Assembly: GCA_965612795.1 (NCBI GenBank)
Contig: CBFDTI010000036.1
Coordinates: forward strand, 1-12,176
Direction of reading: 5' to 3'
Length of the DNA stretch: 12,176 nt
Origin: an uncultured bacterium
Lineage (GTDB): Bacteria > Hydrothermota > UBA3073 > NMUJ01
Every line of letters begins with the position of its first letter. The stretch's first letter is position 1. Shown piece after piece: positions 7,347 through 12,176 of this stretch. The notes below the pieces were generated by a model that was given only the letters and a program-made list of their open reading frames with translations, had not been told where the DNA came from and ran no database searches. The position numbers and the translations under genes are program-made.

Positions 7347-7373
7347 TTGACACACACTCTGGGTGGTTATTTT
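7347..7373 (+). promoter_or_regulatory. Putative promoter of the HD-leuCD-citDE-citF operon (TTGACA-N15-TATTTT)
   Basis: Consensus -35 TTGACA at 7347-7352 and TATTTT at 7368-7373, in the same GTTATTTTAT context as the gyrB -10. The spacer is only 15 bp. Confidence 0.5.
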
Positions 7374-7386
7374 ATCAACGCCAGAG

Positions 7387-7965
7387 ATGAAGCAAGTTAG
7401 CCTAAAAGAGAAAATCAAAGCATTATTTCGTAAGCAGTTGGAGCTCATCAGTGACCCCGCTTTACGTGATAAGGTAGTAAATGTGTGGGTAAACGCCATG
7501 AAGCTGGGTGGTTGGGCGGTTGACGATCTGGAGAATATACCGTTCACGTTGTTGGTTGATACCCAAGGTGTGAGCTTGATCGATCACACCATAGCGGTGA
7601 CCGAATCCGCGTATAGTATGGCGATCGCTATGCGTGAAACCTACGAGCGTGCGGGCTTCAAGCTAAACCTCGATTGGCTTGTAGCGGGTGCGTTGCTACA
7701 TGATGTAGGTAAGCTGCTGGAGATCGAGCAGTCCGGCACCTCGTATCGCAAATCCTATCGTGGCAAATGTTTACGTCATCCCATGTGGGGTGCTGTATTG
7801 GCGGCACAGGAGGGGCTACCTGATGAAGTGTGCAACATCATCGCTTACCACTCACGTGAGGGTGAAGGTAACCCCATTCGAATTGAAACCATCCTCATAC
7901 GGCATGCAGATTTTGCGTGTTTCGATCCTTTCGCCTTACGTGCAAAGAGTATGTTGGTGGAGTGA
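7387..7965 (+). CDS. HD-domain (HDIG-type) metal-dependent phosphohydrolase
   Basis: LIDHT...GALLHDVGK...RHP...IIAYH...RHAD gives the full H..HD..H..H..D pattern. ATG 7387 is preferred because the GTG at 7363 lies inside the putative promoter. The stop overlaps the next start (TGATG). Confidence 0.88.
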   Translation: MKQVSLKEKIKALFRKQLELISDPALRDKVVNVWVNAMKLGGWAVDDLENIPFTLLVDTQGVSLIDHTIAVTESAYSMAIAMRETYERAGFKLNLDWLVAGALLHDVGKLLEIEQSGTSYRKSYRGKCLRHPMWGAVLAAQEGLPDEVCNIIAYHSREGEGNPIRIETILIRHADFACFDPFALRAKSMLVE

Positions 7966-9761
7966 TGGGCCACACTATTATCGAAAAGATTATCGCCCGC
8001 CATTGTGGTAAACAGGTGCAACCCGGTGATATTGTTGATATGTTTATCGATACCCGGGTAGCACGTGACTTCGGTGGTGCCAATGTAGTCAAGCATCTCG
8101 AAACCCATGGCTTGGAGATCGACGACCCACAACGTACGTTCTTTACGTTTGATTGTAACCCAACAGGTTCGGATCAGAACTATGCTACTAACCAACATAT
8201 CTGTCGCGTATTTGCACGCAAACATGGTATCAAAGTCTACGACATAAATGCTGGTATAGGTACACATATTGCGATCGATGAAGGGTTGGTATCACCTGGT
8301 GATACGTTTGTATCCACGGATTCACACGCCAACATCGTTGGCGCTATAGGGGCATTGGGTCAGGGTATGGGCGATCTTGACATCGCATACGCGTTTGCTA
8401 AGGGGAGAGTATGGTTCAAGGTACCACCAACAATCAAGCTGATACTCAAAGGTAAACCACCTGCTAACGTAACTCCTAAGGATATAACGCTATTCCTTGT
8501 CAAACATTTTGGTGCATCGGGACTGCTGGGTTATGCGTGCGAAGTTTATGGCGACATAGTGGATGAACTCACCCTATCCGCACGTATCACGATAGCGTCG
8601 ATGGCTACCGAGATGAGTGCTATAGCTATGCTTTTTGCACCCAACAAACAGATACTGGAGTATTGTCGTAATGTAGCACAACGTGGGTTCACCCCAGTCT
8701 ATGCGGATGAAGATGCCAAGTACGAGGATGTCGTAACCCTGGATATATCCAGATTGGAACCCCTAATCGCGCAACCCGGTCGTCCCGACAATGTGGTACC
8801 AGTAGCTGAAGTGCAGGGTAAAAAGATCGATTCGGTATTCATCGGTTCGTGTACCAACGGCAGATACGAGGATATGGTGCAGGTAGCTAAAATACTGGAA
8901 GGTAGGAAAGTAGCCCCTGGTGTGGTGCTAAAGATAGTGCCATCAACCGATAAGATCTGGTATCGGTGTCTCGAAACTGGCATCTTTAAGATATTCAAAT
9001 CCGCAGGTGCGCTCATCGGTAACGCCGGGTGTGCGGGTTGTGCTGCGGGTCAGATCGGTCAAAACGGTCCAGGCGAAGTAACCGTAAGCACTGGTAACCG
9101 CAACTTCCCCGGCAAACAAGGTAAAGGTGAGGTATGGCTTACATCGCCAGCGACAGCTGCTGCATCTGCGGTTGCTGGATATATCACCACTGCTGATAAG
9201 ATACCCGACAAACCCGCAATCTTTATTGTACCGAAACCTAAACCTATTCCCAAAGCACGTTGTGAGGTAGGTGAACGTCCCACCCGCATACGTGGTAGAG
9301 TATGGGTGATACCTATCGACAACATCGACACCGATATGATATATCACAACCGCTACCTTACGGTGACCGATGTCAATCAGATGGGCCAGTACGCGTTTAG
9401 CAACCTACCAGGGTGGCAGGATTTACACAAAAAGGTGCAACCCGGTGACATAATTGTCACTGGTAGGAATTTCGGTTGCGGTAGCTCACGTCAACATGCG
9501 GTTGATTGCTTCCGTGCATTGAGGTTAGGTGCTATAATCGCAAAGTCGTTCGCCCCAATATATGAACGTAATGCGATAAATTCAGGCTTACCAATAATGG
9601 TGGCAGATCTCGACAACCTCAACTTAAAGGATGGTGATGAGCTTGAAATCGATTTCGTCACCGGTGAAATACGTAAGGTAGCCACTGGTGAAACCGTGCA
9701 TGGGGTGCCATTCTCTGAAATACAGTTATCAATTTACAAACGTGGTGGGTTGCTACCTTAA
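7965..9761 (+). CDS. Fused large+small subunit aconitase-family hydro-lyase (3-isopropylmalate dehydratase/homoaconitase-like), substrate unknown
   Basis: 598 aa from ATG 7965. LeuC-like part: MGHTIIEKI, TDSH, GSCTN (C296), CAGC (C356/C359), STGNRNF, SPATAAASA. Pro/Lys-rich linker, then LeuD-like part: GRVW, DNIDTD, GRNFGCGSSR, IAKSFAPIYERNAINSGLP, GGLL. Confidence 0.88.
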   Translation: MGHTIIEKIIARHCGKQVQPGDIVDMFIDTRVARDFGGANVVKHLETHGLEIDDPQRTFFTFDCNPTGSDQNYATNQHICRVFARKHGIKVYDINAGIGTHIAIDEGLVSPGDTFVSTDSHANIVGAIGALGQGMGDLDIAYAFAKGRVWFKVPPTIKLILKGKPPANVTPKDITLFLVKHFGASGLLGYACEVYGDIVDELTLSARITIASMATEMSAIAMLFAPNKQILEYCRNVAQRGFTPVYADEDAKYEDVVTLDISRLEPLIAQPGRPDNVVPVAEVQGKKIDSVFIGSCTNGRYEDMVQVAKILEGRKVAPGVVLKIVPSTDKIWYRCLETGIFKIFKSAGALIGNAGCAGCAAGQIGQNGPGEVTVSTGNRNFPGKQGKGEVWLTSPATAAASAVAGYITTADKIPDKPAIFIVPKPKPIPKARCEVGERPTRIRGRVWVIPIDNIDTDMIYHNRYLTVTDVNQMGQYAFSNLPGWQDLHKKVQPGDIIVTGRNFGCGSSRQHAVDCFRALRLGAIIAKSFAPIYERNAINSGLPIMVADLDNLNLKDGDELEIDFVTGEIRKVATGETVHGVPFSEIQLSIYKRGGLLP

Positions 9762-9790: not shown

Positions 9791-10975
9791 ATGGAGGTTG
9801 CAGAAGTAGGTAGACGTGGCCCTGACATACGGGCAGATTGTTTCGTACATTTTGAGCTCAGACCCAGTGGTGGGTTGGATATCGAACTCAAAAGCAAAGT
9901 GGAATCGATGTATGGCGATTCCATACGTGGGTTGGTGACCGATATGTTGGAATATTTTGGTATCAAAAACGCATACATATATCTTGAGGATTATCGTGCA
10001 TTCCCGTGGGTATTGATGGCACGTATCGAGGCAGCGATCAAAAAATGTCTACCCGATATCGAGCTGGAATACCTACCTGATATGTTGCCACAAAACCTAT
10101 ACAAGAAGCCACGTGATACGTTTAGACGTACGCGGTTGTATGTACCGGGTGACCAACCTCGGCTTATCATCAACTGTGGGCTTTATAAACCCGATGGTAT
10201 AGTGCTCGACCTCGAAGATAGTGTAGCACCCGACCATAAGTTTGGTGCACGCTTCATGGTACGTAACGCATTACGGGCAGTTGACCTAATGGGTGCAGAA
10301 CGTATGGTACGTATCAACCAGTTACCTAATGGGTTGGACGACCTACCGTATGTGGTACCACATAACCTACATACGGTGTTGATACCCAAATGTGAATCCG
10401 GTGACCAGGTTCGACAGGTTGCCGATAAGGTTGATACATTGCGTAAGCAACACAAAATAGAAGATGAGATATACCTCATACCGATTATTGAGAGTGCAAT
10501 GGGTGTGATCAACGCATACGAGATAGCGAGTGCATCCCCACATGTGGTAGCATTAGCGGTGGGGTTGGAGGACCTAACCGCTGACATAGGGGCTGAACGT
10601 ACCAAAGAGGGTACGGAAACGTTGTTTGCACGTCAACAGATAGTTATCGCTGCACGTGCTGCTGGTGTACAGCCGCTCGATACGGTATATTCGGATGTCG
10701 AGGATTACGAAGGTTTACGTGCAAGCGTACGTGAAGCCAAACGTATGGGGTTTGAAGGCAAGGGATGTATCCACCCACTACAGGTTAGGGTGATACATGA
10801 GGAGTTCATGCCAACCCCTGAAGAGGTTGAAAAAGCACACCGTATAGTTGAGGCGATGGAGGAAGCCAAACGCAAAGGGTTGGGCGTGGTAGCACTTGGT
10901 ACGAAGATGATCGATCCACCCGTCGTCAAACGTGCACTTAGGGTGTTGAAGCTAAAGGAATTGTCCGAGAAATGA
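9791..10975 (+). CDS. citE: Citrate lyase gamma (ACP/CitD-like) - beta (citryl-CoA/ACP lyase, CitE) fusion protein
   Basis: aa 1-87 resemble CitD (IELKSKVESMYGDSIR, LEDYRAFPWVLMARIEAA). aa ~112-394 are CitE/HpcH family (RRTRLYVPG, DLEDSV, VRIN, IIESA, GLEDL, GFEGKGCIHP, MIDPP). Confidence 0.88.
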   Translation: MEVAEVGRRGPDIRADCFVHFELRPSGGLDIELKSKVESMYGDSIRGLVTDMLEYFGIKNAYIYLEDYRAFPWVLMARIEAAIKKCLPDIELEYLPDMLPQNLYKKPRDTFRRTRLYVPGDQPRLIINCGLYKPDGIVLDLEDSVAPDHKFGARFMVRNALRAVDLMGAERMVRINQLPNGLDDLPYVVPHNLHTVLIPKCESGDQVRQVADKVDTLRKQHKIEDEIYLIPIIESAMGVINAYEIASASPHVVALAVGLEDLTADIGAERTKEGTETLFARQQIVIAARAAGVQPLDTVYSDVEDYEGLRASVREAKRMGFEGKGCIHPLQVRVIHEEFMPTPEEVEKAHRIVEAMEEAKRKGLGVVALGTKMIDPPVVKRALRVLKLKELSEK

Positions 10976-10992: not shown

Positions 10993-12176
10993 ATGGGCGG
11001 TAAAATCAACGCCGCTGGTAGATGGGTACCTGATGAGATTAACGGTAAACCTGTGATACCGTTTCAAGGTGTCGGCAAATATATACCAAAAGGTAGGAAA
11101 GCAGCACCTCCCATCGTAAGTTGTGCGAATTACCCTAAGGATGGAAACAAAGTTGTTAAATCACTACGCGAGGCGCTCGAACTCTGTGGCTTACGTGATG
11201 GTATGACGATAACGACACATCACCACTTCCGTAATGGTGATAAGCTTGCTAATAAATTGTTCGATATCATTGCTGAAATGGGGGTTAAGGACCTGGTATG
11301 GTACCCCAGTGCTGCATTCCCGTGTCATGAACCTATCATCAAGCATCTCAAGAGTGGTGTGATACATCATATCGAGGGTAGCCTTAATGGACCTTTGGGT
11401 GAGTTCTGCACATATGGTGGTATGCGTGGACAAGGTGTGTTACGTTCGCATGGTGGACGCTATCGTGCGATACAGGATGGTGAAGTACATGTTGACATAG
11501 CAATGATAGCTGCACCGACAGCTGATCCGTTCGGTAATGCCAACGCCCTATACGGTAAGTCGGCGTGTGGACTGCTGGGGTTTGCGCTCGCTGATGCACA
11601 GTACGCGGATAAGGTGATCATAGTGACTGATAATCTGGTACCATTCCCATGCATACCGTGGCAGATACATGGTAACTGGGTAGACTACGTGGTGGTGATG
11701 GACGATATCGGTGACCCCAGCAAGATCGTATCCGGTACCACTGTTATTACACGTAGCCCGGCAAGGTTGTTGATCGCTGAGTACACGGCAAGGTTTATCA
11801 AAGAGGCTGGCATAATGCGGGACGGGTTCTCGTTTCAAGCGGGTGCCGGCGGTACATCGCTCGCGTTTATACCGTATCTTAAGAAATACATGAAAGAGGC
11901 CGGTATCAAAGCACGTTGGGTACGTGGTGGTAGCACAAAGTATCTGGTGGAACTGCTCGAGGAGGGGCTTACGGACTACATACTGGATGGACAGACGTTC
12001 GACCTACATGGGGTGCGTTCGATGCGCGATAACCCCAACCACGTATGGACGTCACCGTTTACAAGCTACAACTACCACGGTAAGGGTAACTTTGCATCTA
12101 TGGTGGATGTGGTGGTACTGGGTGCCACTGAAGTGGATGTTAACTTCAACGCTAACGTGGTGACACACTCAGATGG
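10993..12176 (+). CDS. citF: Citrate lyase alpha chain (citrate CoA/ACP transferase), truncated by the window edge
   Basis: Absent from the ORF track; translated by hand. MGGKINAAGRWVP..., GLRDGMTITTHHHFRNGD, LRSHGGR, ADPFGNAN, GFSFQAGAGG, LDGQTFD and DVVVLGATEVDVNFNANVVTHSD are CitF signatures. Confidence 0.92.
   Translation, partial: MGGKINAAGRWVPDEINGKPVIPFQGVGKYIPKGRKAAPPIVSCANYPKDGNKVVKSLREALELCGLRDGMTITTHHHFRNGDKLANKLFDIIAEMGVKDLVWYPSAAFPCHEPIIKHLKSGVIHHIEGSLNGPLGEFCTYGGMRGQGVLRSHGGRYRAIQDGEVHVDIAMIAAPTADPFGNANALYGKSACGLLGFALADAQYADKVIIVTDNLVPFPCIPWQIHGNWVDYVVVMDDIGDPSKIVSGTTVITRSPARLLIAEYTARFIKEAGIMRDGFSFQAGAGGTSLAFIPYLKKYMKEAGIKARWVRGGSTKYLVELLEEGLTDYILDGQTFDLHGVRSMRDNPNHVWTSPFTSYNYHGKGNFASMVDVVVLGATEVDVNFNANVVTHSD

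Follow-up and report, generated by a model that had tools for sequence, protein, structure and literature searches.

A gene for a fused aconitase-family protein with a remodelled active site is found on the window analyzed here, a 12,176-nucleotide contig (CBFDTI010000036.1) from an uncultured bacterium of the Hydrothermota. The encoded protein is a member of the aconitase superfamily that lacks the defining active-site features of every characterized subfamily to which it was compared. It belongs to an uncharacterized and widely distributed branch of this family, for which a changed chemistry or substrate is supported. The aconitase family is the textbook example of a fixed catalytic apparatus that is reused for different substrates. 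If the assignment is true, a branch with the iron-sulfur cluster and serine base intact, but with the donor histidine and at least four other supposedly invariant residues replaced, shows how much of this apparatus can be remodelled. At least 80 species-level genomes carry a member of this branch, mostly those of uncultured sediment, vent and groundwater organisms. An earlier note on this DNA, made from the sequence alone, had suggested a different substrate or chemistry and a special role for Cys64 of the protein. The analysis supports a functional, selected and changed enzyme, while the role of Cys64 is weakened by the occurrence of threonine, tyrosine or leucine at this position.

The gene was placed with the list of open reading frames (ORFs) and their translations:

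7965..9761, plus strand: fused aconitase-family gene, 598 amino acids from ATG 7965

ATG 7965, which is preceded by GGTGGAG (sequence at 7941-7975), is the likely start; the database representative P0003 uses the same start and also comprises 598 residues. The surrounding ORF (7917-9761) offers GTG 7917 as an alternative start and encloses the span 8064..9494 given in the earlier note. That span covers only residues 34-510 and cuts the gene, while the motif positions given with it are exact when counted from ATG 7965, and every motif claimed in the translation was found at its residue and nucleotide position in this numbering. The chain is ordered into a large-subunit part (residues 1-410), a linker (approximately 411-440) and a small or swivel part (approximately 441-598). 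Pfam matches to PF00330 (Aconitase, 278.1 bits, gathering cut-off 28.7) and PF00694 (Aconitase_C, 53.5 bits, cut-off 22.8) are unambiguous. The best NCBIfam models are broad subfamilies, namely NF001614 (419.7 bits, cut-off 385) and TIGR01343 hacA_fam (397.0 bits, cut-off 385.7), and every equivalog model for LeuC, HacA, PRK07229, AcnA, AcnB and AcnD stays far under its cut-off. This applies to the LeuC-type models TIGR02083 (324.4 vs 610.65) and TIGR00170 (200.3 vs 560.25), the methanogen HacAB models NF040615 (303.7 vs 550) and NF040625 (133.6 vs 230) and the fused aconitate hydratase models PRK07229 / TIGR01342 (334.5 vs 612; 306.9 vs 719). The AcnA and AcnB models reach only 101-118 bits with cut-offs of 686 to 1287, and the AcnD model only 83.9 bits with a cut-off of 1420.

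According to a published account, His101 of mitochondrial aconitase protonates the leaving hydroxyl, Ser642 acts as the base and the cluster serves as Lewis acid, and about 20 active-site residues are counted as conserved in all aconitase-family members other than AcnX (PMC8184944). The residues at these and neighboring positions were compared with those of close homologues, defined as the best 120 matches of a search of 5.8 billion proteins (own protein included; approximately 600 residues, at least 64% identical), and with 113 canonical rows of a multiple alignment in which the clade was represented by every second of the 120 sequences (60 rows). The following features were identified:

8064..8069, plus strand: R34-D35, which we take to be the Gln72-Asp73 region of mitochondrial aconitase; canonical members have H/Q/N-D
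8151..8156, plus strand: D63-C64 in place of the Asp-His pair; C in 118/120 close homologues, T in 2; canonical H 93%
8259..8267, plus strand: G99-T100-H101, with the His one residue further downstream than in C-H-Q of canonical members
8319..8327, plus strand: D119-S120-H121, the retained Asp165-Ser166-His167 motif around the free iron; canonical rows identical
8598..8612, plus strand: S212-M-A-T-E216, Ser for a conserved Asn (canonical N 84%), Glu kept
8850..9041, plus strand: the [4Fe-4S] ligand cysteines C296, C356 and C359
9096..9119, plus strand: N378-R379-N-F-P-G-K384-Q385, Lys for Arg (Arg452 position), Gln for Met
9345..9365, plus strand: small-domain substrate loop H461-N462-R463-Y-L-T-V467, from alignments to 3VBA and 2PKP
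9483..9494, plus strand: S507-S508-R509-Q510, serine base and Arg kept, Gln for an invariant Glu

R34, T100, H101, S212, K384, Q510, the three cluster cysteines, D119-S120-H121 and S507-S508-R509 are each present in 120/120 close homologues. The canonical rows differ at the substituted columns: position 34 is H in 52% and otherwise N, Q or T, column 100 is H in 96% (T in all clade rows), column 101 is Q in 56% (H in all clade rows), position 384 is R in 96% and position 385 is M in 77%. At position 510, Glu is found in 19/19 canonical fused rows. The residue equivalences, which had been drawn by eye, are borne out by HMMER alignments to the Methanocaldococcus jannaschii structures 4KP1/4NQY, 4KP2 and 3VBA/2PKP, with which the multiple alignments agree. 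The query vaRDfgg stands opposite mvHDitg of isopropylmalate isomerase (IPMI; 4KP1/4NQY) and mtHDgtt of homoaconitase (4KP2), fDCnp opposite fDHqv/fDHnv, aSMatE opposite tNMaiE/cNMaiE and NRNFpGKqG opposite NRNFrGRqG/NRNFkGRmG, and GCGSSRQ of the small part is aligned with GCGSSRE of both 3VBA and 2PKP. In the substrate loop, DTDMIYHNRYLTV was aligned opposite DTDAILPARYLVY (IPMI) and DTDAIIPGPYLRT (homoaconitase), which places YLTV at YLVY of the M. jannaschii IPMI and YLRT of the homoaconitase. Orthologues carry YLTI, YLTV, YLAV, YLAI or YLSI in this loop, and H461 and N462 are fixed in the clade where P and A/G are found elsewhere. E. coli K-12 LeuC/LeuD has H33, D62-H63, H109, N221, R435 and S84-S85-R86-E87 at the corresponding columns. 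For E. coli AcnA and AcnB and a paralogue on contig C35 of the same genome, which were aligned pairwise and locally, only C-terminal columns were used, as the N-terminal third was out of register.

The active-site remodelling is wider than the earlier note had listed. At 42 positions, a residue is fixed in the clade that occurs in at most 5% of canonical rows. Besides the signature residues, clade-specific positions include R31, F36, S117, K323, Q366-N367, Q385 and H461-N462, and I220 replaces a Lys found in 75% of canonical rows, S290 a Gln and V321 an Arg found in 82%. Around C356 and C359, C-A-G-C stands for C-G-P-C, with A357 and G358 being clade-specific.

The joint conservation of the RD, DC, GTH, GK and RQ motifs, which the earlier note had singled out for checking, was found in 118-120 of the 120 homologues. 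The substitutions are thus not private to one sequence and are fixed across close homologues and phyla, and the characterized LeuCD, IPMI and homoaconitase do not carry the substituted residues, so the outcome that the earlier note had named as refuting was not found. An exhaustive search at the level of 50%-identity representatives (150 aligned) showed that the signature is confined to one small group, consisting of two full-length fused representatives, fragments and more distant members; all other full-length representatives carry the canonical residues with scattered exceptions. In a FastTree analysis of 133 large-subunit sequences, 18 signature rows were separated from the other 115 with a branch support of 100. 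The same split (18 vs 43) was recovered with a Shimodaira-Hasegawa approximate likelihood-ratio support of 100 by IQ-TREE under a posterior mean site frequency model, for which 61 rows were used (a random 32 of the 104 canonical rows and all others). The signature marks a separate monophyletic clade. Position 64 varies: Thr64 is found in 2/37 orthologues with every other signature residue kept, and distant split large subunits have Cys (P0136, P0162), Tyr (P0141, P0144) or Leu (P0127). The distant clade member P0126 (fused, 43% identical) carries Glu at 510. No equivalog-level name was obtained from NCBIfam scans of divergent members (P0126, P0127, P0136, P0141, P0144, P0162 and others). Two fused proteins nested in the signature clade, P0128 and P0131, have lost the cluster cysteines (e.g. 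Phe at 296 and 359) and the Asp-Ser-His motif and, judged from these changes, are probably non-catalytic derivatives.

Related loci were collected from 80 species-representative genomes, all of them metagenome-assembled genomes (MAGs), at 58-73% identity plus one copy at 97%. The bacterial sources are WOR-3, Zixiibacteriota, Aminicenantes, Gemmatimonadota, KSB1, Phycisphaerae/Planctomycetota, Eisenbacteria, Stahlbacteria, Cloacimonadota, Bacteroidota, Ignavibacteriota and Myxococcota, and the archaeal source is Thermoplasmatota; the clade thus spans Thermoplasmatota and at least ten phyla of bacteria. When 40 relatives from the same phylum were sampled, seven were found to carry a full-length copy (63-69% identity) and one a copy cut by the contig end (97%), with others holding split or more divergent versions. 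Overall, the nearest full-length relative is a protein from a Zixiibacteriota MAG (73%), while same-class copies reach 63-69%. Since the gene occurs patchily within its lineage, and copies from other phyla are as similar to it as those from its own, these sequence comparisons suggest horizontal spread of the module described below or very strong constraint. Automated annotation names the clade proteins 3-isopropylmalate dehydratase. Because of this label, metabolic reconstructions probably misassign the clade to leucine biosynthesis and miss a step of citrate-type carbon flow. No paper describing the clade, the signature or the module was found in a full-text literature search, whose coverage excludes most subscription journals, and fused aconitase-like proteins in archaea are mentioned only in general terms in one article (PMC11237513).

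The gene is under purifying selection. A ratio of non-synonymous to synonymous changes (pN/pS) of 0.099 was obtained over 306 codons in comparison with the 97%-identical partial copy L007, with 28 synonymous and 9 non-synonymous differences. An AlphaFold2 model built from 37 orthologues reached a mean predicted local distance difference test score of 90.2 and a predicted template modelling (TM) score of 0.83. The linker at 429-434 is disordered, and confidence is somewhat lower at residues 61-70, which carry D63-C64, and at residues 121-130, which follow D-S-H. The top Foldseek matches for the large part are 4KP1, 4KP2 and 4NQY (TM 0.88-0.89 on target), with 7ACN also detected, and the small part is matched by 3VBA (TM 0.87-0.90 over the small part). 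The joint fixation of the signature in a monophyletic clade, together with purifying selection and a confident aconitase-family fold, argues for a functional gene with a different selected function, as the earlier note had suggested, and not for a decaying one.

The M. jannaschii isopropylmalate/citramalate isomerase (4KP1/4NQY, 3VBA) and homoaconitase (4KP2, 2PKP) provided the best sequence matches, with E values of 7.6e-84 and 1e-68, as well as the best fold matches. They share with the studied protein the three cluster cysteines and the Asp-Ser-His, Asn-Arg and Ser-Ser-Arg motifs. However, the M. jannaschii enzymes consist of two subunits, carry H-D, D-H, C-H-Q, N, R and E where R-D, D-C, G-T-H, S, K and Q are found here, and have the specificity loops YLVY and YLRT in place of YLTV. 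Mitochondrial aconitase (5ACN/7ACN, E 5e-31) resembles the protein in superfamily, domain order, C-terminal swivel domain, cluster ligands and serine base, but only 22% of residues are identical, the equivalents of His101, Asn258 and Arg452 are replaced and that of His147 is shifted.

The gene is embedded in a group of genes on the same strand:

7363..7965, plus strand: HD-domain protein, 200 amino acids (PF01966, 57 bits); beside the gene in 45/79 loci
9791..10975, plus strand: fusion of a CitD-like acyl carrier and a CitE-like lyase (TIGR01588, 269.7 bits, cut-off 443; TIGR01608, 42.6 bits; PF03328, PF06857); CitDE-type fusion in 48/79 loci
10993..12174, plus strand: CitF-like citrate CoA-transferase subunit, cut by the contig end (TIGR01584, 387.7 bits for the truncated product; PF04223); in 46/79 loci

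The stop codon (TGA) of the HD gene and the start codon (ATG) of the aconitase-family gene have one base in common, and this TGATG overlap indicates translational coupling. A contig from a metatranscriptomic library, derived from an approximately 96% identical strain, spans the HD gene, the aconitase-family gene and the start of CitDE. As DNA carry-over is possible in such a library, this is only a weak hint of co-transcription of the three genes. Contigs of one run of RNA libraries left 2/30 bins uncovered (10388-10629). In the HD protein, H75, D114, H139, H163 and D183 are invariant in 41/41 orthologues. The dyad His (H113) is replaced by Ile, Ala or Val in a subgroup (L010, L057, L083), and in L010 and L083 this change goes together with a fused second partner. 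Both CitE and CitF score under the NCBI citrate-lyase cut-offs, with the CitF product being truncated.

To describe the module, the ORFs of the 80 loci were clustered and the cluster representatives named with NCBIfam; the gene was recognized by script in 79 loci. The recurrent order starts with the alpha and beta-gamma genes of a 2-oxoacid:ferredoxin oxidoreductase, followed by a 393-residue isocitrate/homoisocitrate-dehydrogenase-like gene, the HD gene and the aconitase-family gene. Next come a canonical LeuC/HacA-like large and small subunit (sometimes fused) and then cleavage genes, which are either CitDE with CitF or a succinyl-CoA-ligase-beta-like gene with a citryl-CoA-lyase-like gene. 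A cleavage-type gene was found in 59 of the 79 loci, the HD gene in 45, a second large subunit in 43, the dehydrogenase-like gene in 29 and the oxidoreductase in 10. When only the 40 well-flanked loci (at least 3 kb upstream and at least 5 kb downstream) were counted, these numbers were 33, 25, 27, 18 and 7, respectively. All locus counts are lower bounds, as fragmented ORFs escape clustering. The canonical large subunits of the module form their own supported group among the canonical sequences in the tree. Their LeuD-like small subunits (loci L009-L086) all carry Glu in a canonical GSSRE motif and share a near-invariant loop PGKYTYTC, which sits where IPMI has YLVY and homoaconitase YLRT and constitutes a second specificity signature in the module. 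In L021, L035, L042, L049 and L066, aspartate-aminotransferase-like and histidine-ammonia-lyase-family genes are found upstream in place of the dehydrogenase and HD genes, and in L049 and L066 they lie directly upstream.

The window is contig C36 of a 1.42-Mb genome with 99.5% completeness. Besides the studied gene, this genome encodes two canonical large subunits (contigs C43 and C35) and two lone small subunits (contigs C65 and C15). The C43 large subunit is located directly behind an isocitrate dehydrogenase (ICDH)-like gene and reaches 542 bits with the HacA_Meth model (cut-off 550). Neither an AcnA/AcnB-type gene nor a PF00285 citrate synthase was detected in the 99.5%-complete genome. 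The same holds for CitG (PF01874), which makes the prosthetic group of the carrier, with no search made for CitX and CitC; the CitDE lyase may work without the classical prosthetic group. A cluster on contig C38 (1277-5318, L091) contains an aminotransferase, a second ICDH-like gene (414 amino acids) and a divergent isopropylmalate/homocitrate-synthase-like gene (468 amino acids), for which all models are far under cut-off; it may represent a Re-citrate-synthase-type or homocitrate-type branch. On contig C30 (16-4321, L095), an AlaDH/PNT-like gene, a saccharopine dehydrogenase (PF03435 and PF16653, 278 bits) and an aldehyde dehydrogenase are found in a row. By the domains of its products, this trio comprises the set of enzymes expected for the saccharopine route, which leads from lysine to 2-aminoadipate. 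A 2-oxoacid:ferredoxin oxidoreductase is also located on C30 (10184-12659, minus strand). Among 30 genomes with the gene, at least 11 contain a further long aconitase-family gene (frames of 637-968 amino acids, 344-570 bits) and 14 a full-length citrate synthase, which argues against the module simply substituting for an absent aconitase.

Our tentative proposal, held with slightly less than even confidence, is that the protein is a [4Fe-4S] hydro-lyase from an ancient, separate clade within the LeuC/HacA-type aconitase family and performs one half, probably the tertiary-alcohol half, of a two-enzyme isomerization of citrate or homocitrate. The parts of an aconitase-type hydro-lyase are invariant, including the three cysteine ligands, Asp-Ser-His with its Glu partner, the serine base, Arg379 and Arg509. 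As the donor His is replaced at the same time, these parts point to a hydro-lyase with a changed proton donor. The enzyme would add or remove water on a 2-hydroxy-tricarboxylic acid, and this substrate class is suggested by the companion genes, which encode acyl-thioester citrate-type cleavage enzymes and often an isocitrate/homoisocitrate-type dehydrogenase. Since a second, canonical pair is frequent nearby, a division of labor is suggested. Next to the lyase, the studied enzyme would convert citrate or homocitrate to cis-(homo)aconitate, and the canonical pair would take the (homo)isocitrate half, as in the homocitrate isomerization of fungi and Thermus. The tertiary-alcohol half fits the host genome, in which the studied gene adjoins the lyase and a canonical large subunit adjoins the dehydrogenase. 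The role of the lost His as proton donor would pass to another group, for which the shifted His101 and the new His461 are candidates, and Arg34 may take over binding of the distal carboxylate. Residue 64, usually Cys and sometimes Thr, probably only fills space or forms hydrogen bonds; because this position tolerates Thr (2/120 and 2/37) and, in sister sequences, Tyr or Leu, it is improbable that Cys64 serves as the essential acid or as a cluster ligand that cannot be dispensed with, two roles that the earlier note had considered. A dehydratase dedicated to the citrate or homocitrate side has a concrete candidate in this clade.

The system of fungi and Thermus offers the closest analogy in pathway logic. 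In these organisms, homoaconitase is restricted to the interconversion of homoaconitate and homoisocitrate, and the homoaconitate is formed from homocitrate by an aconitase (PMC3556520). Yeast Aco2p, which acts on the homocitrate side, has Lys for an active-site Arg, and reverting this exchange raised the activity on aconitate 116-fold; virtually all other active-site residues described as essential are kept in Aco2p (PMC3556520). Both systems would thus employ two aconitase-family enzymes for one pathway, with an Arg-to-Lys change in the enzyme of the tertiary-alcohol side. However, the studied protein additionally has its proton-donor His replaced, and it is partnered in the pathway by a lyase and not by a synthase. 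By numbering offset, the Lys of Aco2p would be at the Arg580 position and not at the Arg altered in the studied protein, which limits the parallel to the principle. A further division of labor is known from 2-methylcitrate metabolism, in which AcnD works with PrpF and AcnB and one aconitase-family enzyme dehydrates while another rehydrates. AcnD is AcnA-like and 860 amino acids long. No PrpF-like gene was seen here.

Several observations weigh against our proposal. The assignment of half-reaction and substrate derives from the gene neighborhood alone, and many loci have the studied gene beside the dehydrogenase-like gene and the canonical pair beside the lyase. Both [dehydrogenase][HD][gene][pair][lyase] and [dehydrogenase][HD][gene][lyase][pair] occur, and gene order was therefore rejected as a guide to the half-reaction. 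In 7 of the 40 well-flanked loci, no cleavage gene was found within 8 kb. The proton-donor His, highly conserved across canonical members, is lost, and the proposed chemistry would need another acid. The YLTV loop has no Arg at the homoaconitase position, which makes the recognition of the distal carboxylate a conjecture. Finally, the methanogen homoaconitase performs both halves of the reaction alone, and a partner is not chemically necessary.

Citrate and homocitrate are about equally probable as the substrate. Citrate is favored by CitDEF and the citryl-CoA synthetase/lyase-like partners, which are known for citrate, and by a host genome without another aconitase. Homocitrate or an analogue is favored by the dehydrogenase-like and canonical hydratase genes, which score best on the methanogen homoisocitrate-dehydrogenase and homoaconitase models, by the further aconitase-family genes and citrate synthases of other carriers, by the scores of CitE and CitF under the citrate-lyase cut-offs and by the saccharopine-route genes of the host, which would deliver 2-aminoadipate. 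A wider interpretation, possible but less likely than not, is that the clade provides the signature enzyme of an undescribed and widely transferred module of anaerobes, which runs a citrate-like chain backwards and dehydrates without the catalytic His by means of another proton donor. Such a module would combine the HD protein, the His-less hydro-lyase, the canonical LeuCD-like hydratase, the (homo)isocitrate-dehydrogenase-like enzyme and a citrate-lyase-type or citryl-CoA-type cleavage system. It might convert 2-oxoadipate via homoisocitrate and homocitrate to 2-oxoglutarate and acetate and thereby form the oxygen-free end of lysine breakdown, or it might serve as an ATP-free branch of citrate cleavage.

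The two-enzyme proposal has to be weighed against other explanations. It is unlikely that the protein is a complete aconitase, which would interconvert citrate and isocitrate alone as part of a citrate branch, reductive or fermentative, that leads from 2-oxoglutarate via isocitrate and citrate to oxaloacetate and acetate, with the substitutions being a lineage-specific new solution for unchanged chemistry. The absence of AcnA/AcnB-type and citrate synthase genes from the host would agree with such a role, as would the gene's cluster in other genomes, which holds 2-oxoglutarate:ferredoxin oxidoreductase, ICDH-like and citryl-CoA synthetase/lyase-like genes, and 13 loci carry the gene with CitDE/CitF and no second aconitase-family gene nearby. 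However, the further long aconitase-family genes and citrate synthases of other carriers, the scores far under the aconitate-hydratase models and the co-occurrence of the canonical pair in 27/40 well-flanked loci speak against it. Rather improbable is a substrate other than a free tricarboxylate, such as a thioester-bound acid (citryl-CoA or citryl-acyl carrier protein) or another hydroxy-acid, of which the new Arg31, Arg34, Lys323, His461 and Asn462 would bind a larger or more polar group. At many of the 42 clade-specific positions, Arg, Lys, Gln, Asn or His has indeed been gained, the gene is constantly accompanied by enzymes that form citrate acyl-thioesters, the small-domain loop is without the Arg used for a free distal carboxylate, and the low CitE and CitF scores would also be consistent with an altered substrate. 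Nevertheless, Arg379 and Arg509, the carboxylate binders in aconitase, are kept, and we know of no aconitase-family member that acts on a thioester.

Very little probability is given to Cys64 as a fourth cluster ligand in a redox, sensing or scaffolding paralogue that would work with the HD protein or the canonical pair. The Cys does replace the His that points at the free iron, and non-catalytic derivatives such as P0128 and P0131 do arise, but Thr64 is found in orthologues with all other signature residues and Tyr or Leu in sister sequences, and there is no reason why the serine base, Asp-Ser-His and the substrate arginines should stay invariant in a protein without catalytic function. Decay or chance in a dying LeuCD copy, for which nothing beyond the loss of canonical residues could be cited, is practically negligible given the intact 598-codon frame, the low pN/pS, the signature fixed across phyla and the confident fold.

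The remaining genes of the window are located on the opposite strand and were named from their translations alone:

window, minus strand: putative gyrB, an M23-type peptidase gene, holB, gyrA and a MiaB/RimO-like gene

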